IMG/VR virus record: IMGVR_UViG_2565956612_000010
Length of the DNA stretch: 11,461 nucleotides
Strand: one strand, 5' to 3'
Origin: a virus
Taxonomy: Duplodnaviria; Heunggongvirae; Uroviricota; Caudoviricetes
Under the pieces are notes generated by a model that was not told the DNA's origin, did not search any database, and was given only the letters and a program-made list of their open reading frames with translations. How positions within the stretch are numbered: position 1 is the stretch's first letter; each line of letters begins with the position of its first letter. This document shows positions 332 to 11,461 of the stretch, piece by piece. The position numbers were made by a program, and so were the translations under genes.

Positions 332-592
332 TTAATTCTGAGGTAAAGGCAAACTCATCTGATTGTTTCCCCTGTGTGAAGCTGGCAGCTCATGCCACGG
401 GATACCATCTGAAGAGTGAACGCCGGAGGCGTGTTTCGATGTGAATTTATGGAAAGCTTCCAGTGTTGAGAAGCATACACCGCATTCCAGGTTGTTACAC
501 TGGTAATACTTTTGCCGCACGGTGTTTGAATCATTTTCCGGACGACTGGTGCGGATACGGGCAGATGCGCCACAAAGCGGACAACGGAACAT
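332..592 (-). CDS. ogr: Ogr/Delta-family zinc-finger late-gene transcriptional activator
   Basis: N-terminus MFRCPLCGASARIRTSR...YYQCNNLECGVCFST matches P2 Ogr (MFHCPLC...RTSR...YHQCQNVNCSATF) with four Cys in C-x2-C...C-x4-C spacing. Strong SD AAGGGAGG sits 5 nt upstream of the ATG on the - strand (593..605). The C-terminus is longer than P2 Ogr. Confidence 0.8.
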   Translation of the reverse strand: MFRCPLCGASARIRTSRPENDSNTVRQKYYQCNNLECGVCFSTLEAFHKFTSKHASGVHSSDGIPWHELPASHRGNNQMSLPLPQN

Positions 593-793: not shown

Positions 794-1954
794 GTGAAAA
801 TGGTCACTATGAAGATAACTAAGACAAATTTTGGTATAACTATTAATGATACTTTAATAACGGATTTTCGCGATGTAGTTAATGAAAGAGATTTTGTTTA
901 TAGTTACTTCATAAACAGAAATGGTAAAAATCAGTTCAGCCCTATTTGTTCATGCATGGATTGGATTACTGTTTCTGTACGCTATCTTATGAACATCCCT
1001 GAAATATCTGAAGACATTGATATTAAAACTATGCAGATTTATACTATTATATCATCAATCGATATAATAGTGGAAGCGGTGCGGCAACTCCATCGTATTA
1101 TTGAAAGTGACAATAATTTTATGAAATGGCCTTTTAAAGGCTCTGTTGATATTTTTAAGGATAAAATACATTATCTTTCGCATGAGGATGATGACTCTTA
1201 TTTTAAGAGTATTCGCGCTATTTTTGGTGCTCACCCTACGAATCTTAAAAATAACCACGGGGAGAGATTATTTGCGAGCTGGCCTCATTTTTATGCACTT
1301 AATAATAATGATTTTACTATAAGTCTTTATAATAACAAACCCGGTGTGGATGATATTATTTTTGGTATTAAATTTAACGAGCTTATCTCATATGTTGAAA
1401 GTAGGTATAAATATCTAGAAAAACTAATGGACTCTATAGTGGTAATTCGTAACAACCATTACGATGTTTTGTCCGCGCAAGTTATATCATCCACCGATAA
1501 CATTTATGATGAGTTGAGGCTGCTTCTTTCAGAAGTCGCTATACGAGGTAATAATGATTATTACCGAATGCAATTAGAAGAGTTAATTCATTTGTTTGAT
1601 GGTTGTGTTAAAGAGAAGCATCTTCAAGATGAAGTAAATGAGTTTTTGAGTAAACTCTATCCGATCGTTTTAGAGATTAGAAATAATCTTCAGAAAATGA
1701 ATGTTGAAGATTTAACAACTACTTGTGATGTGATTATTTCGAGGCTTCCTACAGGTGAATTAAGTTATGTTCTTCAGAAGATGTTTTCTTGTCTCCACTC
1801 AGATAGGGATGATCCATTGAAGGATTATTACCTTGATACTTTAAATAAATATACTGAAGGTTGGTATAATTTTTGCTCTGCAGATAACGATAGTACAACC
1901 TTGCTAAAACTTAGAATGATGCTGTATCGGTATCATCAGCAAAAACTTGATTAA
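794..1954 (+). CDS. Hypothetical protein; AT-rich orphan accessory gene (moron), candidate anti-phage defence or abortive-infection protein, family unassigned
   Basis: Long uninterrupted ORF of 386 aa in a region visibly far more AT-rich than the flanking phage genes. N/I/K/D/Y-rich protein, no Walker A motif seen. Track start is GTG at 794; in-frame ATGs at 800 and 809 are alternative starts; no strong SD. It is antisense to the flanking ogr and D. Confidence 0.6.
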   Translation: MKMVTMKITKTNFGITINDTLITDFRDVVNERDFVYSYFINRNGKNQFSPICSCMDWITVSVRYLMNIPEISEDIDIKTMQIYTIISSIDIIVEAVRQLHRIIESDNNFMKWPFKGSVDIFKDKIHYLSHEDDDSYFKSIRAIFGAHPTNLKNNHGERLFASWPHFYALNNNDFTISLYNNKPGVDDIIFGIKFNELISYVESRYKYLEKLMDSIVVIRNNHYDVLSAQVISSTDNIYDELRLLLSEVAIRGNNDYYRMQLEELIHLFDGCVKEKHLQDEVNEFLSKLYPIVLEIRNNLQKMNVEDLTTTCDVIISRLPTGELSYVLQKMFSCLHSDRDDPLKDYYLDTLNKYTEGWYNFCSADNDSTTLLKLRMMLYRYHQQKLD

Positions 1955-2084: not shown

Positions 2085-3191
2085 TTAGGTCTGCGCAATC
2101 CATTCAGGGATTTTTGTTTCAAGTTCAAGCTGCGTGGTAAAGCCGCTGTTATCAATGGTGTGCTCGGCTTTTGCAATAATCCAGTCCTGATTATCAATCT
2201 CGCTTTTAAATCCTGTTACCGTGCCATGCATTTCGGGGTAGAGTTCTGCGCGTCCACGTGCCAGTGTGATGGAGAACGCTGCGGCTCCGCGTTGTAGCTG
2301 CTGCCACTTTGCCGCCGCTGCGCGTCTTGCTGCCTGCTCGTTCTGATAAGTCTTGCGTAACACAAACACATTGCCTTCCGCGCCTTCCATATAATCACCT
2401 TCACGGCTGCTGCTTTTCTCCTTTTTGGGTTTTGGCGGTTTACGGCGTTTTACGCTGACTTTTTTCTTTTTCCCGTAATTAAGATCAAGCCAGTAGGCGC
2501 GTACCCCCGTATACGCCTCGCGGTCAGCAATACGGAACTGATGGCGATCGCTGCTGCTGCGTGTAATGGCGAACGAGGGCAACGGCTGGCCCTGTGCGTT
2601 CACGCCACCACCTGGCATGATGAATAACAGATTGCCGCTTTTTACCGTGGTGATTGCGCCCAGCATTTCCGCCATGCGCGTAAGGAAGGACATGTCGCTT
2701 TCTTCGGTCTGGTCGGCGTGGTCGATTTCAATATCCATCAGCATTTCGCTGATTTGCGGTTTCAGGCCGTATCGGTGAGCAATTGCAGACACCACGCGTT
2801 CAACGGTCACATCATGCCAGGATACTTCGCGCTTGACGTTAAATTCATCCCGAAAATCTGCGCTTCTGGCTGAAATGGTCAGTCTGTCGGGCGGTCCTTC
2901 ATGAGCAATTTCATCAACAATGTAAGTGCCTTTTTCTGTCAGCGGTTCTCCTTTCCAGCCAATGAGAACCGTCAGGCGCGCGCCCCGTGGCGGTAGCTGC
3001 AACTGACCATCCGCATCATCCAGCGTGATGGTGAGCTGGTCCGCTTCAAATCCCCGGTTGTCGGTCAGTGACAGGCTCATCAGGCGCTCTGCCACGCCGG
3101 ACAGCGTTTCCCCCTCCGCGAGAATATCAAAATCCGGCATTTTCACGGGGTCTGTGCCCTGACTGAGCAATTGCATGGTGGTGTCGGTCAT
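2085..3191 (-). CDS. D: P2 gpD-like tail protein (late control gene D family)
   Basis: Matches P2 gpD at LTDNRGFEADQL, SWHD, FLTR and the lysine-rich KKKVSVKRRKPPKPKKEK stretch. Start placed at the internal ATG 3189..3191 (MTDTTMQ...) because it follows the strong SD GGGAGGG; the upstream ATG at 3210..3212 is the track start. Confidence 0.88.
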   Translation of the reverse strand: MTDTTMQLLSQGTDPVKMPDFDILAEGETLSGVAERLMSLSLTDNRGFEADQLTITLDDADGQLQLPPRGARLTVLIGWKGEPLTEKGTYIVDEIAHEGPPDRLTISARSADFRDEFNVKREVSWHDVTVERVVSAIAHRYGLKPQISEMLMDIEIDHADQTEESDMSFLTRMAEMLGAITTVKSGNLLFIMPGGGVNAQGQPLPSFAITRSSSDRHQFRIADREAYTGVRAYWLDLNYGKKKKVSVKRRKPPKPKKEKSSSREGDYMEGAEGNVFVLRKTYQNEQAARRAAAAKWQQLQRGAAAFSITLARGRAELYPEMHGTVTGFKSEIDNQDWIIAKAEHTIDNSGFTTQLELETKIPEWIAQT

Positions 3192-3347
3192 CTTTCCCTC
3201 CCTGTGCAGCATGGTCGCATGTGCGTGCGGAGGGGGTTACTGCTTTTTGTTGTCGCCGTGGCGGGAGAACGGCGCAGGGGTGAGATTACGCGCGTGGTGG
3301 GTGATGATTGTTGCCGAATCATTTAACGGATACAAGGGGCTGAAGCT

Positions 3348-4532
3348 ATGAGTGAAACTCGTTTTCATGGTGCCCGTGTTACGGAAAGTACCGACCTGGT
3401 AACAGCGATTAATGATGTTGATTCCAGTGTTATCGGTATCGTGGCAACGGCGGATGATGCGGATGCGGAGCTGTTCCCGCTGAACAAGCCCACACTGCTG
3501 ACCCGCGTCAATGACGTGCTGGGAAAATGCGGAACAACGGGGACGCTTTATCGTGCGCTTAAGGCCATCGCAGACCAGGTGAGCACAAAGGTGATCGTCG
3601 TTCGCGTGGCTGAACACAAAGAAGAAGACGGAAAAACGCAGGATCAACTGGTTATCGGTGGTTCTGAATCTGACGGCAGCTATACGGGGATGTATGCGCT
3701 GCTTGTTGCAGAGCAGGATGAAAGCATCGGATACCGTCCGCGTATTCTGGCCGCGCCGGAGCTGGACACGGAGGCGGTAACAAAATCCCTGTGCGTGATT
3801 GCGGGTAAACTGCGCGCGTTTGTGTATGCCTCATGTCACGGCTGTAACACGATGGCTGAGGCGATTACCTACCGCCAGAAATTCAACGAACGTGAGGTGA
3901 TGCTCTTATGGCCGGACTTCATCGCCTACAACCCGAAAAGTGGCAAAAACGAAACGTTCCCCGCGCCTGCCTATGCGTGCGGCCTTCGTGCGTACATTGA
4001 CCATGAGCAGGGCTGGCACAAATCGCTGTCCAACGTTCCGGTTAAAAATGTGCTGGGGATGTCCAGGCATGTGTTCTGGTCGTTGCAGGCCGAAGACAGT
4101 GATGCCAACAGCCTCAACAACAAAGAAATCACGACCATTATTCGTCGCAACGGGTTCCGCTTCTGGGGCAACCGCACCCCGGAAACGAACGCCTACATCT
4201 TTGAGGTGTATACCCGAACCGCACAGGTGCTGGCTGATTCAATTGCGGAAGCGCAGTTTGAAACCATCGACAGTCCACTGACGCCTGCGAACGTGAAAGA
4301 TGTTATCAGTGCCATCAGGGCAAAACTGGATTCACTGGTTACTGCCGGGAAACTGATTGGGGCGTCGTGCTGGTATGACGTGGTGGATAACGGCACCACG
4401 AATTTACGTCAGGGGCGCGTGCGTATTCGCTACAAATATACGCCTGTTCCCCCGCTGGAAGACATGGAGCTTTACCAGTCGTTTACTGATGAATTCTTTG
4501 GTCCCGCATTTGCGGTGCTGGGAGGTGCCTGA
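3348..4532 (+). CDS. FI: Contractile tail sheath protein (P2 gpFI family)
   Basis: 394 aa; conserved blocks shared with P2 FI (DADAE-FPLNKP, QGWHK-LSNV, IRR-GFRFWGNRT, YTPVPPLE). SD AAGGGG 8 nt upstream. Its stop overlaps the FII start (TGATG). Confidence 0.95.
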   Translation: MSETRFHGARVTESTDLVTAINDVDSSVIGIVATADDADAELFPLNKPTLLTRVNDVLGKCGTTGTLYRALKAIADQVSTKVIVVRVAEHKEEDGKTQDQLVIGGSESDGSYTGMYALLVAEQDESIGYRPRILAAPELDTEAVTKSLCVIAGKLRAFVYASCHGCNTMAEAITYRQKFNEREVMLLWPDFIAYNPKSGKNETFPAPAYACGLRAYIDHEQGWHKSLSNVPVKNVLGMSRHVFWSLQAEDSDANSLNNKEITTIIRRNGFRFWGNRTPETNAYIFEVYTRTAQVLADSIAEAQFETIDSPLTPANVKDVISAIRAKLDSLVTAGKLIGASCWYDVVDNGTTNLRQGRVRIRYKYTPVPPLEDMELYQSFTDEFFGPAFAVLGGA

Positions 4533-5044
4533 TGGCTGTACCAAAACATCTTCGCTTTTTTACGCTGTTTGTGGATGGTGAAAACGAAGTGGGTAAGGTG
4601 ACGTCTGTCACTCTACCTAAGCTGACGCGCAAAACCGACAGCTACCGGGGTGGTGGCATGATGGGTGCGGTAAGTATTGATCTCGGTCTGGACGACTCCG
4701 CGCTTGATGCGAGCTTTGTCATGGGGGGCGCAGTTCGTGAGCTGTTCCTTAAGTATGGCGGCACGATTGACGGCACGCTGCTGCGTTTTGCGGGTGAATA
4801 CTACACCGATGCAGAAAGCGACCTGTATGAAGTCGAAATGCGCGGACGTGTGACGGAAATTGATATGGGGGAAGCCAAACAGGGCGAAGCCACATCACAC
4901 ACTTACGCCATTAAAAACACCTACTACAAGCTGAGTGTTAACGATCGCCCGTTGTGGGAGATTGACCTGCTGAACTTCATTTACCGGAAGGACGGCAAGG
5001 ACATTGTGCCCGATCGCATCCGTTCCGCGCTCGGGCTTGGCTGA
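4532..5044 (+). CDS. FII: Tail tube protein (P2 gpFII family)
   Basis: 170 aa; SVTLPKLTRK, YRGGG and VEMRGR blocks match P2 FII; translationally coupled to FI. Confidence 0.95.
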   Translation: MAVPKHLRFFTLFVDGENEVGKVTSVTLPKLTRKTDSYRGGGMMGAVSIDLGLDDSALDASFVMGGAVRELFLKYGGTIDGTLLRFAGEYYTDAESDLYEVEMRGRVTEIDMGEAKQGEATSHTYAIKNTYYKLSVNDRPLWEIDLLNFIYRKDGKDIVPDRIRSALGLG

Positions 5045-5098
5045 TAAGTAATATGCAGGCGGCGCAGTGCGTCGCCTCTGACTGAAAGGAGTTTCCTG

Positions 5099-5464
5099 AT
5101 GAAAGAGACGAAAAACATCGATACCGAAAACACGGTAGTTACTGACACTGTGAAAGAAACCAGTGAGCGTGGCGTAAAACTTACCCAACCAATTGAGCGA
5201 GGCGGCGAAAAAATCACGTATGTGGAGATCACCGGGGCTATTGAGCAGGCTGGATCTCTGCGAGATTTGTCGCTGTCTGATGTGCTGAATCTGAAAGCGG
5301 AATCCATGTTTACGCTGCTGTCACGCGTGACATCACCGCGACTGGATGAAGTGACGATCAAAAAAATGGCATCCCGTGACTTTATTCAGTTATGTGTGGT
5401 TGCCGTAAATTTTTTGAGCGGTGCGGACTCTGGCGGGAAGAACGAACAGGCGACGGAAGCCTGA
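5099..5464 (+). CDS. E: Tail assembly chaperone gpE (zero-frame product)
   Basis: 121-aa ORF directly after FII with SD AAGGAG (5086..5091); it contains a slippery heptamer near its 3' end and is followed by an overlapping -1 frame ORF, the P2 E/E' arrangement. Confidence 0.85.
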   Translation: MKETKNIDTENTVVTDTVKETSERGVKLTQPIERGGEKITYVEITGAIEQAGSLRDLSLSDVLNLKAESMFTLLSRVTSPRLDEVTIKKMASRDFIQLCVVAVNFLSGADSGGKNEQATEA

Positions 5465-5628
5465 TCACGGTTGTGTGCTTTGAGCACATAGAAGACTTTG
5501 TGGCGGATATTGCCGCCATTTTTAACTGGTCGCCCGCCGAAATCTTCATGATGACGCCCGGCGAAGTGGTTAGCTGGCGTGAGCGGGCGGCACTTCGCAG
5601 CGGGAATGCAGACAATGAAGACTCTTGA
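5099..5628 (+). CDS. gpE+E' frameshift fusion chaperone (E codons 1-106, then 70 codons of the -1 frame; about 176 aa)
   Basis: Deduced from the slippery site and the open -1 frame; analogous to P2 E/E' and lambda G/GT. Its 3' end overlaps the start of T. Confidence 0.6.
5410..5416 (+). other. Programmed -1 ribosomal frameshift slippery site T_TTT_TTG
   Basis: Heptamer TTTTTTG in the E zero frame (codons TTT 5411..5413, TTG 5414..5416). The -1 frame opens at 5416 and runs to a stop at 5626..5628, the same frame as track ORF 5392..5628. Confidence 0.65.
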
Positions 5629-8422
5629 TATCCGGGTCGCTTTCAGCGCCGTTGACAGGCTGACCCGGCCTGCCGAAAACGCCCGCCGCCTGATGGGGCA
5701 GTTTGGTGACTCCATCCAGCGAACGCAGGGGGCGATCAAAAATCTCGAGCGTCAGGCGCGATCATTTGAGCGCGCCCGCGACGCTGTCAGTAAAGCGGAT
5801 GCGGGTATCGTGAAAGCACGACGCCAGCTTAACGCCCTTAATCAGTTACAACGCACGGGTACAGTGCTCAGCGAAAAACAACAAAAGCTGATGCAGCAGT
5901 TAAGCACCCGGCTTGAACGCCTGAATGAATCGCGCACACGGGAAATTCAGAAAATGCGGGAGCTTGGCGGAGAGCTGATACGCCACGGCATTTCCCTGAC
6001 AGGCAGCGATAACACCATCCAGCAGGCCATCAGACGCACCGAACAGTACAACAACCAGCTTGAACGCGAACGGCAGGCGCTTGCGCGTGTAACGCGGGCG
6101 CGTGAGCGGTATTCGCGCGCGCAGGAAACCGCGGGAAAACTGAAAACAGGTGGTGCGCTGGCAATTGGTGCGGCAGCGGCGGGCGGCTATGCTGCCGGGC
6201 GTTTTTTGCAGCCTGCGATCGGGTTCGGCAAAGAGATGTCCCGCGTTCAGGCACTGACGCGAATCGACAAAAACAGCCCGCAGTTTAAGGCGCTGCGTGA
6301 GCAGGCGTTAAAACTTGGCTCTGAAACACAGTTTACTGCGAGTGATGCCGCCAGTGGGCAGAGCTTTCTGGCAATGGCTGGTTTTACTCCGCAGGCCATT
6401 CAGGCCGCATTGCCCGGTGTTCTTAATATGGCGCTGGCAGGTGGCGTCGAACTCGGCGAGACGGCGGATATAGGCTCCAATATCCTCACACAGTTCAACC
6501 TGACAGCCGATCAAATGGACCGGGTGGGCGATACGCTGACAGCAGCATTTACCCGGACCAATACTGATTTACGCGCGCTGGGCGAAACCATGAAGTATAC
6601 CGGTCCGGTTGCCGCAAAACTTGGTATCAGTCTTGAAGAAGCGGCGGCCATGGCCGGGATGCTTGCCAATAATGGTCTTCGCGGAAGCGATGCTGGCACG
6701 GCCATGCGCGCAAGTCTGTCCCGCCTTGCATCACCGCCAAAAGCTGCGGCTGATGCACTGAAAGAGCTGGGGGTGTCAGTTGCTGACGCCAGAGGCAAAA
6801 TGCGCCCGATGGAGGATGTGCTGCTTGATCTCTATAAGGCGACACAAAAATACGGACAGGTGGACCAGGTCTCCTTCTTCAAGGACATCGCCGGAGAAGA
6901 GGCGTTCGTTGGTTTGCAGACGCTTGTTGCGGCGGCTGGTTCAGGAGAGCTGCAAAAACTGACCAGAGAACTGCAGGGGGCAAGGGGAGAGGCCGATCGC
7001 GTTGCAAAAGTAATGGCCGATAATCTTGATGGGGACCTGAAAAATCTCGACAGCGCATGGGAAGGTCTTCGTATTCGCATCAGTGATCTGGTTGACGGTC
7101 CGCTGCGTTCTGTCACGCAGTGGCTCACGCGGGTGCTTGAAAAAATCACCTCGCTGGCGCAGGCCCATCCGGTACTGACGCGCCAGCTACTGATAGCAGG
7201 CGGTGCGTTGCTGGCAATGACTGCAACGATTGGCTCGTTGTCGCTGGTTATTGGGGTGCTTTACGGAAAGCTGGCCACCCTGCGTCTTGGTTTTGACATT
7301 CTTACCCGGTCAATGAATGTCGTCCGGGTGTTGCCTGCGCTGTGGGGAATGCTGACGGGTTCTGTTTCTTTGCTGGGAGGCGCTATCGGGGCGCTGTTCA
7401 GTCCGGTTGGATTGATTGCTGCTGCGTTTGTGGCTGCGGCGGTTCTCATCTGGAAATACTGGGAACCCATTAAGGCGTTTTATGCCGGGGTGTTCAACGG
7501 GATTATGGAAAGGCTGACCCCGTTGCGCGAAACCTTTGAACGGTTTGGTCCTGTTTTTGACGCAATCGGAAGCGGGATCAGCCAGGTGTTTAACTGGTTT
7601 AAATCGCTGCTGTCACCGATGGAGTCCAGCAAGGAAACGCTGGATAAATGTACCAGTGCTGGCGAGATATTCGGTAACGTTCTTGGCGGTGCGTTACAAC
7701 TTGTTCTGACACCTGCAAAAATGCTACTGGATACGCTGGCGTGGATACTTGAAAAACTTGGCGTCCTTCCGGATGAAGCGGAAAGGGCACGCAAGGAAAT
7801 CGAAGACGCACAGCGTGCGGTCATTCTTCAGGACAAGGTTGCCTTACTTCAGGGGGACCTGGCGAAAATCAATCCGCCGAAGCCTGTGGAAAATGGCAAT
7901 GGCACCGGAGGTGATAAACCCAAAGACAACAAACCGCTCACAGACAGCAATACCGGGACGCTACGCAGACTCAGCAAAATTGCTGATAACACAGGTAAGC
8001 TGGTTGATGAGACGAAAAAACGCATTGGCCCCGGCGATATTGTCTTTAAGAACCTGCCCCGCGCACTTGCTGTTCGTGGGGAGTGGCAGGAGCGGAAGAT
8101 TGCGCAGGTCAGTAAGCCTGCCCCCGCAATTAATATCACACCCGTGGTCCCGGCTCCGCTGCCTCCGGCGCTGGTCCCTGTTGTTGCGGCCAGCTCCCGC
8201 CCGGTGGCGGAGGCCATACGATCTCCAGTGGCATCAGTTCCTGTAACTTCCCGTAACCGGGAGCCTGTTGCCTCCGGATTTGGTGGTGAAATTCATGTTC
8301 ATCTGCATAACGTTGTTACGCAGAATCCCCGCGAACTGGCGAAACTGGTCGGTGAAATGGTCAGGGCAGAAATGGAACGGCGCGCCCGTGCCGGGCGTGG
8401 CAGTTTTTACGATAAAGATTGA
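5615..8422 (+). CDS. T: Tail tape measure protein (P2 gpT family)
   Basis: About 935-aa ORF with a coiled-coil-rich N-terminal half, hydrophobic glycine-rich central segments and a Pro/Ala-rich C-terminus, in the tape-measure position between E/E' and U. Start is ambiguous: track GTG at 5579, ATG at 5606, and ATG at 5615, which has GGGA 9 nt upstream. Confidence 0.9.
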   Translation: MKTLDIRVAFSAVDRLTRPAENARRLMGQFGDSIQRTQGAIKNLERQARSFERARDAVSKADAGIVKARRQLNALNQLQRTGTVLSEKQQKLMQQLSTRLERLNESRTREIQKMRELGGELIRHGISLTGSDNTIQQAIRRTEQYNNQLERERQALARVTRARERYSRAQETAGKLKTGGALAIGAAAAGGYAAGRFLQPAIGFGKEMSRVQALTRIDKNSPQFKALREQALKLGSETQFTASDAASGQSFLAMAGFTPQAIQAALPGVLNMALAGGVELGETADIGSNILTQFNLTADQMDRVGDTLTAAFTRTNTDLRALGETMKYTGPVAAKLGISLEEAAAMAGMLANNGLRGSDAGTAMRASLSRLASPPKAAADALKELGVSVADARGKMRPMEDVLLDLYKATQKYGQVDQVSFFKDIAGEEAFVGLQTLVAAAGSGELQKLTRELQGARGEADRVAKVMADNLDGDLKNLDSAWEGLRIRISDLVDGPLRSVTQWLTRVLEKITSLAQAHPVLTRQLLIAGGALLAMTATIGSLSLVIGVLYGKLATLRLGFDILTRSMNVVRVLPALWGMLTGSVSLLGGAIGALFSPVGLIAAAFVAAAVLIWKYWEPIKAFYAGVFNGIMERLTPLRETFERFGPVFDAIGSGISQVFNWFKSLLSPMESSKETLDKCTSAGEIFGNVLGGALQLVLTPAKMLLDTLAWILEKLGVLPDEAERARKEIEDAQRAVILQDKVALLQGDLAKINPPKPVENGNGTGGDKPKDNKPLTDSNTGTLRRLSKIADNTGKLVDETKKRIGPGDIVFKNLPRALAVRGEWQERKIAQVSKPAPAINITPVVPAPLPPALVPVVAASSRPVAEAIRSPVASVPVTSRNREPVASGFGGEIHVHLHNVVTQNPRELAKLVGEMVRAEMERRARAGRGSFYDKD

Positions 8423-8434
8423 GGAGTCATGGCC

Positions 8435-8923
8435 ATGATGATGATCTACGGCATGTTTGTTTTTGAGCTGCGCACGCTGCCGCATCAGCAGTTACAGCAA
8501 AACAAAAGCTGGCGGCATGTGAAAAATGAACGCGTTAACCGTTCAGCAGGCTGGCAGTATATCGGCGCAGGTGATGATCGCATTGTGCTTTCCGGCGTGC
8601 TTTATCCTGAAATTACAGGTGGCGAAGTGTCGCTTTCGTTGCTGACCACGCAGGCATATACAGGACGCCCCTGGCCTCTGATTGATGGTGTCGGGCAGAT
8701 TTACGGCATGTATGTACTGACTGAAACGAATACGACCCGTTCCGAGTTTGATCGCTATGGTAAGGCGAAAAAGATAGAATTTTCACTGACTCTTGAACGC
8801 TGTGATGAGGATTTGCGGGAGCGCCTGCAATCCTCATCGTTCAGCGATATGCTGTCCGGCTTCAAAGATAAAGTGACATCATCTCTTAACAGCGCGGCCA
8901 GCTCCGTTAAAGGGCTGTTTTGA
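8435..8923 (+). CDS. U: Tail protein gpU
   Basis: MMMIYGMFVFELRTLPHQQLQ aligns with the P2 gpU N-terminus (MMMVLGLFVFQLKTLPYQQLQ). SD GAGGAG (8421..8426) lies 8 nt before the ATG at 8435; the track start at 8429 is too close to the SD. Confidence 0.9.
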   Translation: MMMIYGMFVFELRTLPHQQLQQNKSWRHVKNERVNRSAGWQYIGAGDDRIVLSGVLYPEITGGEVSLSLLTTQAYTGRPWPLIDGVGQIYGMYVLTETNTTRSEFDRYGKAKKIEFSLTLERCDEDLRERLQSSSFSDMLSGFKDKVTSSLNSAASSVKGLF

Positions 8924-8930
8924 TTAACGC

Positions 8931-8960
8931 AAAACCGCTAATGGTCAGATTAGCGGTTTT
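8931..8960. terminator. Putative bidirectional intrinsic terminator (12-bp perfect stem AAAACCGCTAAT / ATTAGCGGTTTT, 6-nt loop)
   Basis: Hairpin between convergent U (stop 8923) and the invertase (stop 8950..8952), flanked by T-rich and A-rich runs usable on both strands; the invertase stop codon lies inside the stem. Confidence 0.55.
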
Positions 8961-9549
8961 CATTTTCCTGAGTCTGCCTGGTTGTTTCTTCAGCCTGTAT
9001 ATCGCCTACAGGGTGATAACGATAAATCGTCGATATGCCGATGTCGTAAATGATCGCCAGTTGTTTCCTGTCATGACCGTTTTTAATCAGCCTCGCTATT
9101 TGCTCGTGTTGTTCTTTTGTCAACTTCGGGCGACGTCCGCCAATGCGTCCTTGTGCGCGTGCTGCTGCCAGCCCGGCCAGTGTACGCTCTACAATTAATT
9201 CACGTTCCATTTCGGCTAAAGCCCCCATGACGTGAAAAAAGAAACGCCCCATGGGTGTTGACGTGTCAATGCTGTCCGTCAGACTACGGAAATTAACACC
9301 TTTTTCCCGCAATTCCTCAATAAGCGTGATCAGGTGTTTCATACTTCTGCCCAGTCTGTCCAGCCTCCAGACAACCAGCGTATCTCCTTCTGATAGCGTT
9401 CTGAGCAGTTTTTTCAATCCCGGTCTGGTTGATTTCGTTCCGCTGATTTTATCTTCAAAAATCAGTTCACATCCTGCGCAGTTCAGTGCATTGCGTTGTA
9501 AATCCGTGTTCTGGTCGTTTGTTGACACACGAATATAGCCAATTTGCAT
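8950..9549 (-). CDS. Serine DNA invertase (Hin/Gin/Cin/Pin family)
   Basis: MQIGYIRVSTNDQNTDLQRNAL... has the catalytic Ser in the YIRVST motif, and the LVVWRLDRLGRS and DTSTPMGRFFFHVMGALAEMERELIVERT blocks are near-identical to Hin. Start at ATG 9547..9549 is preceded by SD AGAGGA; the 43-codon N-terminal extension in the track is an artefact. Confidence 0.93.
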   Translation of the reverse strand: MQIGYIRVSTNDQNTDLQRNALNCAGCELIFEDKISGTKSTRPGLKKLLRTLSEGDTLVVWRLDRLGRSMKHLITLIEELREKGVNFRSLTDSIDTSTPMGRFFFHVMGALAEMERELIVERTLAGLAAARAQGRIGGRRPKLTKEQHEQIARLIKNGHDRKQLAIIYDIGISTIYRYHPVGDIQAEETTRQTQENENR

Positions 9550-9603
9550 AAAAAACATCCTCTTTGTTTCGTGAAAAATACAGAGTTGGTATAGGTAGGG
9601 ATA

Positions 9604-9629
9604 AAAACGAAAACGTTGGTTTGGGGGAA
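9604..9629. other. Candidate 26-bp invertase crossover site, left (hix/gix/cix-like), core TT at 9616..9617
   Basis: AAAACGAAAACG-TT-GGTTTGGGGGAA. The inner half-site is the exact reverse complement of the inner half-site of the right-hand site; the ...AAACC-AA-GG... centre resembles hixL. Confidence 0.5.
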
Positions 9630-9838
9630 GGCTCTGCATTGCCTGTTGGTGTACCGGTTCCATGGCCCACCGCCACACCGCCAGCAGGCTGGTTACAGTG
9701 CAACGGAGCTACGTTCACCAAAGAACAATATCCTGTTCTGGCCAGAGCCTACCCGACCCTCCGTCTTCCCGATTTGCGCGGTGAGTTTATCCGTGGATGG
9801 GACGACGGGCGCAAGATTGACGAGGGGCGTAAGTTGCT
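9616..9838. repeat. Inverted repeat, left copy (about 220 bp), encoding the shared N-terminal part of the fibre-tip cassettes
   Basis: Aligned by eye to the reverse complement of 11010..11232; includes a 94-bp perfectly identical core at 9721..9814. Both copies encode GLGEGSALPVGVPVPWPTATPPAGWL...RGEFIRGWDDGRK. Confidence 0.85.
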
Positions 9839-10094
9839 TTCATGGCAGAAAGGTACACTGGTCGGCGGTCATGACGATAACGATTCTGCGCTTGATATCT
9901 CGTACATGAGTAACGGAAATAATATTGACTATGGCGGCGATAAGGTGTTTGCGGGGAATTACCGTAGCGATTATTTGTGGTACGCAATGCTGGGTGGAAC
10001 AAACAGTCGCGCAAAAGCCGAATTAAACGGAGCATTCTTTAACATAACCCGCCCCCGCAATATCGCGTTTAACTATATCGTGAGGGCGGCGTGA
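9618..10094 (+). CDS. Silent alternative tail-fibre C-terminal cassette (start-less; expressed only after inversion fuses it to H)
   Basis: Frame is open from the crossover core to a stop at 10092..10094; there is no ATG or SD, and the track 'start' at 9564 is TTG inside the invertase leader. The encoded tip shares the IR-encoded N-terminal block and the C-terminal RPR-IA-NYIVRA motif with the H tip but differs in between. Confidence 0.75.
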   Translation, partial: GLGEGSALPVGVPVPWPTATPPAGWLQCNGATFTKEQYPVLARAYPTLRLPDLRGEFIRGWDDGRKIDEGRKLLSWQKGTLVGGHDDNDSALDISYMSNGNNIDYGGDKVFAGNYRSDYLWYAMLGGTNSRAKAELNGAFFNITRPRNIAFNYIVRAA

Positions 10095-10100
10095 TACCGT

Positions 10101-10715
10101 TCAACTGGCAAGTGCCAGTGGCGCTTCCGGCCAGCTGATTTCAGGTGCCTTGCTGATATCCAGTGCGTTCAGCTCGTCGATATAATCCAGCACGGCGTTC
10201 AGTTTTGCCGTTTCTTCTGGTTTCAGACTGCGACCTGCCCGCAGTTTGAGGTTGATGGGGTCGATGGACTTCATCGCCTGATCCACCCGTTTCTGGCGTT
10301 GCAGTCTGGCAGTCTCCAGTTCTGCGGCTCGCTGCCGTTCAGTATCGGTTACCCACGCCTCACCGTTCCAGGTATCCCATGGCGTGGCTGGCTGTTTTGT
10401 GGTGGTGTCCGCCGGGTAATCACCCGGTTGGGTAATCAGAACAGGGTTACCGTTCTCCGTGCTGTATACCGTCTCGCCGCGGTGATCAGGCACATGCTCC
10501 CACCCGTTCAGCGTGGCAGTCCGGCAAACCACGTAACCCGAAATTGCCTCCGGCGGTGCATCGGCGCACGAATGTGCCGGAGTACCCACCCCAAGGGCGA
10601 GATACTCCACAGAGGATGAGGTGTATTCCCGGGTTTCCTCGTCATAGTGATATACAGTGATATCGCCCGCTACAGTGGCGATACCGTTTTCATCCAGAAC
10701 TGCAGTGTTACTCAT
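10101..10715 (-). CDS. Tail fibre assembly chaperone (Tfa, P2 gpG / Mu U-like)
   Basis: 204-aa ORF directly downstream of H with stop/start overlap TAATG at 10713..10717; composition and position are typical of Tfa proteins. Confidence 0.85.
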   Translation of the reverse strand: MSNTAVLDENGIATVAGDITVYHYDEETREYTSSSVEYLALGVGTPAHSCADAPPEAISGYVVCRTATLNGWEHVPDHRGETVYSTENGNPVLITQPGDYPADTTTKQPATPWDTWNGEAWVTDTERQRAAELETARLQRQKRVDQAMKSIDPINLKLRAGRSLKPEETAKLNAVLDYIDELNALDISKAPEISWPEAPLALAS

Positions 10716-11461
10716 TAAACTGCCCTCACAATGTAATTAAGTGCAATGCTACGGGGTCTGACAGTGATACCCTTCGCATACCCGCTTCTGATAGAGGTCA
10801 GAATAGTAGCCTGCATACCATTGTCTGACATTGTTATGACAGGATCGCTGAATGTTGTCCCGTCCGGCATTTTAAAGCTGCCCTCACGAAGGTCTGTAAT
10901 GGAATCTTCATTGTTGAATCCCATGCCGACTATCCCCGAGGTTCCCGTAGTGTCCTGGTTATAATAATCCAGCATTGCTGTTCTTAACAGCGTTGCCCCT
11001 TGTGCGGACAGCAACTTACGTCCTGTATCAACTTTGCGCCCGTCGTCCCATCCACGGATAAACTCACCGCGCAAATCGGGAAGACGGAGGGTCGGGTAGG
11101 CTCTGGCCAGAACAGGATATTGTTCTTTTGCAAAGGTGCGCCCGTCGCACTTTAACCAGCCTGCTGGCGGTGTGGCGGTGGGCCATGGAACAGGCACACC
11201 AACAGGCAGTGCAGAGCCTTCCCCCAAACCAAGGTAATTGAGGACATCTTTTATACTGCCCTTAGCGATAATAGCGCGACCAATAGCTGTAAGGGTTGCC
11301 AGCGCTGCGCGGTCTGCTCCGGTAAAATAAGGCAACCGATCTGCTGCAGTGGCAAGTCCTGCCAGAGCAGTGAGCGTGGCATCTGCCGGTTGTTTTCCGT
11401 TTGCCAGATCGTATGCAGCCTTGACCGCTTTCGGTGTGGCGGCCAGTATTTCAGACGTGCT
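10715..11461 (-). CDS. H: Tail fibre protein H, 3' portion (N-terminus beyond the window end)
   Basis: The reading frame stays open to the window edge (...STSEILAATPKAVKAAYDLANGKQPADATLTALAGLATAADRLPYFTGADR...); the track start at 11335 is TTG and artefactual. The C-terminal tip lies inside the invertible segment. Confidence 0.88.
   Translation of the reverse strand, partial: STSEILAATPKAVKAAYDLANGKQPADATLTALAGLATAADRLPYFTGADRAALATLTAIGRAIIAKGSIKDVLNYLGLGEGSALPVGVPVPWPTATPPAGWLKCDGRTFAKEQYPVLARAYPTLRLPDLRGEFIRGWDDGRKVDTGRKLLSAQGATLLRTAMLDYYNQDTTGTSGIVGMGFNNEDSITDLREGSFKMPDGTTFSDPVITMSDNGMQATILTSIRSGYAKGITVRPRSIALNYIVRAV
11010..11232. repeat. Inverted repeat, right copy (within H)
   Basis: Reverse complement aligns with 9616..9838; perfectly identical core at about 11034..11127. 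Confidence 0.85.
11219..11244. other. Candidate 26-bp invertase crossover site, right, core AA at 11231..11232
   Basis: TTCCCCCAAACC-AA-GGTAATTGAGGA. The inner half is identical to the reverse complement of the left site's inner half; the outer half belongs to the constant part of H. Confidence 0.5.

Follow-up and report, generated by a model that had tools for sequence, protein, structure and literature searches.

One tail fibre chaperone gene and two alternative fibre tips in an invertible segment of a P2-related Escherichia coli prophage

How can a single chaperone gene suffice for a tail fibre that has two alternative tips? The question is raised by a stretch of 11,461 nucleotides (IMG/VR record IMGVR_UViG_2565956612_000010, hereafter the window), which, judged by its open reading frames and domains, is the 11.4-kb end portion of a P2-related prophage and in DNA searches grouped with P88-like (Xuanwuvirus) prophages of Escherichia coli. 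It contains an invertible block with two tip cassettes for one tail fibre, tip A and tip B, and one gene for a tail fibre assembly protein (Tfa). An initial annotation had taken the two-chaperone segments of Mu and e14 as the reference and had proposed that the alternative tip needs no chaperone, that Tfa is transcribed from elsewhere in the flipped state, or that a second chaperone has been lost. That reference was not the appropriate one, as the locus belongs to a family with two to eight cassettes and a single pivot tfa. With a probability of roughly 0.6, the window holds the core, with two cassettes, of a multiple-inversion system of the Min type (p15B-like), and the E. coli prophage that carries it is P88-like and related to P2. 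The assignment is made because relatives have up to eight cassettes with one Tfa and because a model of such loci gives the published number of 240 isomers. The single chaperone is the normal state of the Min-type family, not a loss.

The invertible block and its one chaperone gene

The invertase encoded beside the block has a Pfam Resolvase domain (PF00239) and a C-terminal HTH_7 domain (PF02796). It matched the Mu Gin structures 3UJ3 (E 2.9e-90, residues 1-185) and 4M6F (E about 1e-90) and was assigned to PHROG 125, DNA invertase. The crossover motif CGTTGGTTTGGGGGAAGG occurs exactly twice in the window, compared with 0 copies expected from shuffled sequences. The two 26-bp sites are inverted with respect to each other, share the same central dinucleotide and lie at the constant/variable junction of the fibre gene. 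The arms of a 229-nt inverted repeat, 90% complementary, span the collar-coding parts of the two tips. Both sites fit the consensus quoted in the E. coli EC958 genome paper (PMC4134206). The inner half-site of the left site is identical to one published for EC958 prophage Phi2, and the right site differs at 2 of 24 specified bases from the published Phi2 5' site, TCCTCAATTACCTT GGTTTAGGAGAA.

Inversion in silico joined the constant fibre part to tip B in frame. The flipped window aligned in one piece with the chromosome of E. coli M1/5 at 99.9% identity, whereas the best alignment of the unflipped window reached 98.6%. The M1/5 annotation shows an intact fibre gene that has tip B as its C-terminus, with tip A and Tfa antisense, exactly the state that had been predicted from the window. 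A DNA search gave matches in 1202 of 5426 complete E. coli genomes, 245 of which cover at least 80% of the 2.56-kb query. Orientations were almost evenly divided, with 245 genomes arranged as the window and 233 flipped; a synthetic query composed of invertase, Tfa and constant part found Tfa in sense in 14 genomes and antisense in 16. Isolates U13A and U14A have chromosomes differing in length by one base, with identical locus coordinates and opposite orientations. For EC958 prophage Phi2, with its near-identical 26-bp sites, both orientations were reported in PacBio reads from a single culture (PMC4134206), and for a P2-like prophage of enteropathogenic E. coli (EPEC) E2348/69 the polymerase chain reaction showed four isomers with three alternative C-termini (PMC4272514). 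The block of 1.6 kb flips in nature, both states being present at about 1:1. A locus locked in one orientation was also considered and is ruled out by M1/5 and by both sets of counts.

The chaperone was identified by PF02413 (E 3.5e-27) and PHROG 105 (E 1.6e-87); sequence search of the PDB returned no Tfa homologue. Searching the window by tblastn with Tfa returned only Tfa itself. Hidden Markov models built from seven and six Tfa sequences gave one match in the six frames of the window (E 1e-111), the next having E 0.69, and profiles of two other Tfa subfamilies added nothing in those frames. The complete close relative L001 has no additional Tfa up to baseplate gene V. The stop codon of tip B (TGA, 10092-10094) is 6 bp from that of Tfa on the opposite strand (10101-10103), which bears out the observation of a single Tfa without space for another.

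On the other side, the ATG of Tfa overlaps the stop of tip A (TAATG, 10713-10717), with a Shine-Dalgarno sequence, GAGGG, 7 nt upstream within the IVRA codons of tip A. A PF02413 gene thus follows directly on the same strand for tip A and not for tip B. Tip A, Tfa and tip B form an indivisible block because no crossover site lies among them, and since inversion cannot separate the three, Tfa is never in sense when tip B is expressed. The IVRA codons (GTGAGGGC) end every tip, in the window (10716-10730 and 10080-10094) as in the cassettes of L002-L010, and encode the Shine-Dalgarno-like GAGGG; only the copy upstream of Tfa has a start codon at the right distance.

Relatives and the Min-type family

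Comparison with related prophages, which the initial annotation had suggested, was informative. The close relatives L002-L005 have three or four tip cassettes and one Tfa, the third cassette differing between L004 and L005. P1-like phage-plasmids have eight cassettes and one Tfa, which is in sense to the fibre gene in L009 and antisense in L010. Relatives overall carry two to eight cassettes and always one pivot Tfa. The 27 pivot-type loci sampled, which come from P2-like prophages, P1-like plasmids and viral contigs, all contain a single Tfa, and their convergent stop codons are only a few bases apart. Among the 143 Tfa genes in the collected loci, a sample biased towards relatives of the window, 42 are followed by a convergent second Tfa (the canonical form), 27 by a convergent tip without a second Tfa (the pivot type, with two to eight cassettes), 59 by nothing convergent (non-invertible) and 15 by a contig end. 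Canonical two-Tfa segments occupy the same genome position as the window locus in P88, pro483 and Peduovirus magyaro. That the window has lost a second chaperone from such a segment, as these three phages might suggest, is very improbable given the single Tfa in 27 of 27 pivot-type loci, a family reaching eight cassettes and the lack of a Tfa remnant in any frame of the window.

In the isomer model, cassettes each with a 5' site were arranged around one Tfa and all isomers were enumerated. Six cassettes gave 240 isomers, the count published for p15B Min (PMC2481393). A P7-like plasmid region reported to be 99% identical to p15B min contains a single tfaE among many small open reading frames beside pin (PMC5786510). 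The invertase and first collar of the window are about 85-86% identical in DNA to the versions of P1-like plasmids, and homology to the p15B min region itself is indicated indirectly. The family to which the window belongs has its cassettes packed head to tail around the single pivot tfa, each starting with a site. With exactly two sites and two cassettes the window has two isomers and is not itself a multiple-inversion system.

The Min multiple DNA inversion system of plasmid p15B was reportedly described by Sandmeier, Iida and Arber in 1990-92 and is said to have been known since 1990. Min of p15B and its P1/P7-like copies resemble the window in having a Gin-family serine invertase beside the block, packed 3' fibre cassettes each opening with a crossover site, collar-type tips ending in NIAFNYIVRA, and one pivot tfa. 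In contrast to them, the window has two sites and two cassettes and lies in a P2-related (P88-like) prophage rather than a P1-like plasmid, and its Tfa, 57% identical to the plasmid Tfa, is linked to another head.

The segments Mu G, P1 C, e14 P and P88/pro483 resemble the window in that an invertase of the Gin/Cin/Pin type swaps the fibre C-terminus in frame and that 26-bp sites lie at the constant/variable junction; P88 has the same genome position and gene order in addition. They are symmetrical, with two tip-chaperone pairs, whereas the window is asymmetrical with one Tfa. The T4 gp37/gp38, lambda Stf/Tfa and HK97 Stf/Tfa systems likewise have a Tfa of about 200 aa directly downstream with stop/start overlap, a collar and a NIAFNYIVR strand, but are non-invertible, with one tip per chaperone. 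The R64 shufflon (pilV) has a tyrosine recombinase (Rci), a pilus adhesin and no chaperone gene. Its logic is alike in that a constant gene receives one of many alternative 3' cassettes by shuffling.

Closer counterparts are EC958 Phi2 (Forde 2014), with near-identical 26-bp sites, an inverted repeat of about 227 nt and both orientations in one culture (PMC4134206), and the EPEC E2348/69 shufflon (Goldberg 2014), with three repeats, four variants and three alternative C-termini (PMC4272514). Both differ from the window in their longer blocks (2067 bp, and about 2200/1800 bp), which implies at least three cassettes there. The single chaperone and its orientation go unremarked in both papers (PMC4134206, PMC4272514).

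Two further observations concern individual relatives. In E. coli MS8345 (L003) an identical 168-aa tip occurs twice, at 3719-4225 and 5853-6359, one copy expressed and the other silent and inverted. Either the tip is truly duplicated, or mixed orientations have misled the long-read assembly, an effect for which a warning has been given (PMC4134206). In P1-like plasmids the insertion sequence IS26 truncates the invertase of L006 (4313-5372) and removes the fibre side of the cassette array in L008 (8194-8898), and these copies are presumably frozen.

Tip scaffold and possible chaperone supply in the flipped state

Both tips contain a Phage Tail Collar domain (PF07484, E about 5e-16). They match the receptor-binding tip of T4 gp37 (2XGF, E 4.6e-15), the C-terminal NIAFNYIVR included, and match T4 gp12 more weakly. 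As had been claimed, both end in a common motif, RPR(N/S)IA(F/L)NYIVRA(A/V). Among the tips compared, identities are 63-95% in the collars, 67-80% in the C-termini and 11-33% in the heads. By sequence comparison the tips are of the T4 gp37 class, with a common collar, a common C-terminal strand and variable heads. In the gp37 structure the chain exits the collar, builds the distal head and comes back to the collar. Such a path would account for a conserved collar and last 15 residues with a variable middle.

The Tfa proteins of the window, HK97, EtG, two P2-like phages (including pro483) and a P1-like plasmid share 48-59% identity along the entire chain, N-terminal domain included, while the heads linked to them are only 11-19% identical. 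Because its sequence does not co-vary with the linked head, Tfa looks like a generic chaperone recognizing the common scaffold and serving all cassettes. If it recognizes that scaffold, one gene would serve every cassette and a second would never be needed. A collar tip immediately precedes Tfa in 140 of the 143 family members sampled. In the viral contigs L072, L073 and L074, Tfa comes directly after a head of the same type as that of tip B, with identities of 73%, 71% and 55%, and the Tfa-linked tip of HK97 resembles an unlinked cassette of the window's family. T4 gp37 requires gp38 (PMC9608196, PMC9659904), and lambda Tfa is reported to substitute for gp38 (Montag 1989, as cited in PMC9659904). 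In the receptor-binding protein family of the latter paper, an assembly gene of 184-207 aa is always directly downstream (PMC9659904). According to North 2019, as quoted in PMC9608196, the variable N-terminal domain of Tfa binds the fibre and the conserved C-terminal domain trimerizes.

A generic chaperone still has to be made when the block is flipped. Enumeration showed that, for any number of cassettes, tip A always has Tfa in sense, the tip at position B (convergent with Tfa) never does, and the other tips do in half of the isomers. States of the form const-X-A-Tfa, in which a non-A tip is expressed with Tfa in sense, are exemplified by L002 and L003. Where tip A lies silent between the expressed tip and Tfa in this way, Tfa must initiate translation independently. 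With two cassettes, the window has no alternative tip other than the one at position B, and the puzzle is therefore at its sharpest. In 26 of 26 loci the cassette at position B is intact, and at least five head types occur there, which mildly argues that the position is used. The ratio of non-synonymous to synonymous polymorphism (pN/pS) in tip B compared with tip A and Tfa rested on too few substitutions to be informative.

The block sits between two convergent late operons in this phage. In the flipped state, tip B would still use Tfa, from transcription outside the fibre operon. The likeliest source would be read-through of the convergent, strongly expressed FI-U (sheath-to-U) late operon. 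Transcription would have to run through the hairpin at 8931-8960, which is of moderate stability (-15.6 kcal/mol, z -2.9) and looks like a putative bidirectional intrinsic terminator, then cross the invertase gene and enter the block, giving sense tfa RNA. A weak promoter inside tip A would be the alternative source. The earlier suggestion that Tfa is transcribed from elsewhere is kept on these grounds as a tentative answer with somewhat less than an even chance, although the scans gave no promoter for it.

Several results weigh against this account of a generic chaperone supplied in both orientations. A strict sigma-70 scan for a promoter of flipped-state Tfa found 0 sites, and a weight-matrix scan gave matches inside tip A (TTAAGA-15-TATTAT, ATGTCA-17-TACTAT) only at background density. 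Scanning each cassette revealed a collar-region motif, CTGGCA-17-TAAATT, in P1-like cassettes that is absent from the window family, and promoter matches were unconserved between the families. Read-through cannot be general, because in P1-like plasmids nothing on the invertase side is transcribed in the direction of the block. Position B may be intact simply because heads often recombine between positions. Four lineages (L031, L033, L046 and L056) have two same-family Tfa genes in a two-tip segment, and their retention suggests that orientation matters or that the Tfa proteins are specialized. Lastly, the collar-type fibre gp12 of T4 needs gp57A for folding but no chaperone of the gp38 type, so collar tips are not always Tfa-dependent.

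Near the left site, the weight-matrix scan found no promoter reading in from the invertase side. An Ogr-type late promoter was considered at the dyad 9565-9582, of the form TGT-N12-ACA. It was disfavoured by chance expectation (1 perfect dyad in the window compared with 2.8 expected), by the missing -10 element 55 nt away, the distance typical of P2 late promoters, and by conservation of the dyad, with two changes, in P1-like plasmids, which lack Ogr; it is absent from P88. The dyad is probably due to chance or part of the invertase control region. Elsewhere, a near copy of the dyad with a single mismatch (TGTCGCCGTGGCGGGAGA, 3251-3268) precedes the sheath gene and lies 55 nt upstream of a position preceded by GATGAT (3303-3308). 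This region, in the divergent gpD/sheath intergenic space, fits a P2-type late promoter for FI as far as sequence can indicate.

In a more far-reaching reading, orientation would gate the supply of Tfa, half of the isomers, among them all position-B ones, lacking Tfa in cis. Either the arrangement would double as an ON/OFF (infectivity) switch for the fibre, or the phages would possess a hitherto undescribed, orientation-independent Tfa route, for example the read-through proposed above for P88-like phages; this we hold to be less likely than not. The same low standing is given to the view that Tfa-antisense states are unproductive, tip B misfolding without Tfa so that about half of the isomers, and all that express B, would be fibre-defective. 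That the cost would be tolerated for a compact locus with many specificities, and that the two-cassette form would be a deletion derivative acting as a fibre ON/OFF switch, is equally doubtful. The fruitless promoter scans agree with unproductive states, as does the enumeration, with position B never Tfa-sense and the other non-A tips divided 50:50. Position B is geometrically unavoidable in a single-Tfa shufflon, and its presence therefore needs no selection. That some lineages have kept two Tfa genes of one family implies a role for orientation, deletion between direct collar repeats could turn a const-X-A-Tfa state (L002) into the two-cassette form, and some loci have an IS26-truncated invertase. 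Nevertheless, the 26 intact position-B cassettes with their variety of heads speak for use of the position, loci with two cassettes and an undamaged invertase are found repeatedly, across several lineages and in either orientation, and a weak promoter would be an easy evolutionary fix.

Slightly less likely again is that Tfa is dedicated to the abutting tip A, with tip B and the unlinked cassettes folding alone or with host chaperones. Only tip A has the overlapping stop and start with Tfa, and up to seven cassettes have no chaperone of their own. T4 gp12, also of the collar type, is generally known to need gp57A and not gp38. In a study of xenorhabdicin a fibre gene alone could redirect specificity, and the same possibility was raised there (PMC13280938). 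The initial proposal that the alternative tip needs no chaperone is in this form retained, but weakened. Heads of the tip B type do precede Tfa in L072-L074; the HK97 tip is likewise Tfa-linked although it resembles an unlinked cassette, and Tfa does not co-vary with its head. Of 143 Tfa genes, 140 are linked to a collar tip, Tfa is present in non-invertible phages that have such tips, and the structural homologue T4 gp37 strictly needs gp38 (PMC9608196, PMC9659904).

Locus layout and meaning of the arrangement

The features of the window are collected in Table 1. The tail fibre gene, which runs past the window end, is visible complete in loci L001 and L015.

Table 1. Coordinates of the features of the window, with the strand and the basis of each assignment or a remark
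Feature	Position	Strand	Basis or remark
ogr	332-592	-	Open reading frame list, domain search
Open reading frame, function unassigned, AT-rich	794-1954	+	Open reading frame list
gpD	2085-3212	-	Open reading frame list, domain search
Tail sheath, tube, E, tape measure, gpU	3348-8923	+	Open reading frame list, domain search
Hairpin between convergent gene U and invertase gene	8931-8960		12-bp stem, T runs on both sides
Serine DNA invertase, Gin/Hin/Cin/Pin/Min family, external to the invertible block	8950-9549	-	Pfam, Mu Gin structures, PHROG 125
TGT-N12-ACA dyad, upstream region of invertase gene	9565-9582		Unique as a perfect copy in the window; of doubtful significance
Left 26-bp crossover site, AAAACGAAAACG TT GGTTTGGGGGAA	9604-9629	+	Core TT at 9616-9617
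Left arm of 229-nt inverted repeat (collar-coding 5' part of tip B)	9613-9841		Right arm at 11007-11235
Tip B cassette, silent, 158 codons: collar domain, variable head, C-terminal RPRNIAFNYIVRAA	9618-10094	+	Position B, convergent with Tfa
6-bp spacer between convergent stops, pivot of the block, without crossover site	10095-10100		Sequence TACCGT
Single Tfa (tail fibre assembly protein), 204 aa, lambda Tfa / T4 gp38 type	10101-10715	-	PF02413, PHROG 105
Tip A cassette, 171 codons, now fused to the constant fibre part	10715-11230	-	Translationally abuts Tfa
Right 26-bp crossover site, - strand reads TCCTCAATTACC TT GGTTTGGGGGAA	11219-11244	-	Core at 11231-11232
Constant part of tail fibre gene, P2 H-like, Phage_fiber_2 repeats (PF03406)	11233-11461	-	Runs past the window end

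The sheath-tube-E-T-U block is inverted relative to P2 and convergent with the fibre operon and the invertase gene; gpD and ogr lie on the strand opposite to it, a layout in common with phage P88. In P88, as in the window, the invertase gene adjoins gpU, and the fibre operon and the sheath-to-U block point towards each other. The open reading frame between ogr and gpD (794-1954, 386 aa) has a G+C content of 31-33%, compared with 52-59% in its surroundings, and had no match in Pfam, PADLOC, PHROGs or NCBIfam. It resembles a moron, possibly an anti-phage or other cargo gene. Open reading frame E (5099-5464) is overlapped by one in another frame (5392-5628), the layout expected of the P2 E / E+E' tail-chaperone frameshift.

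The locus is otherwise an ordinary member of a known system, present in hundreds of sequenced E. coli genomes. What remains of interest is modest, namely the probably generic chaperone and the paradox of position B, neither of which was found discussed in the accessible literature on such systems. The Min-type arrangement explains the many 'phage tail protein' fragments annotated beside invertases in E. coli genomes. Its asymmetry poses a testable question, namely whether chaperone orientation restricts the productive isomers of a shufflon. If one Tfa folds up to eight tips with unrelated heads, gp37-type tips would be swappable onto P2-like phages, P1-like phages or tailocins without matched chaperones, and this, if true, would be useful in host-range engineering.

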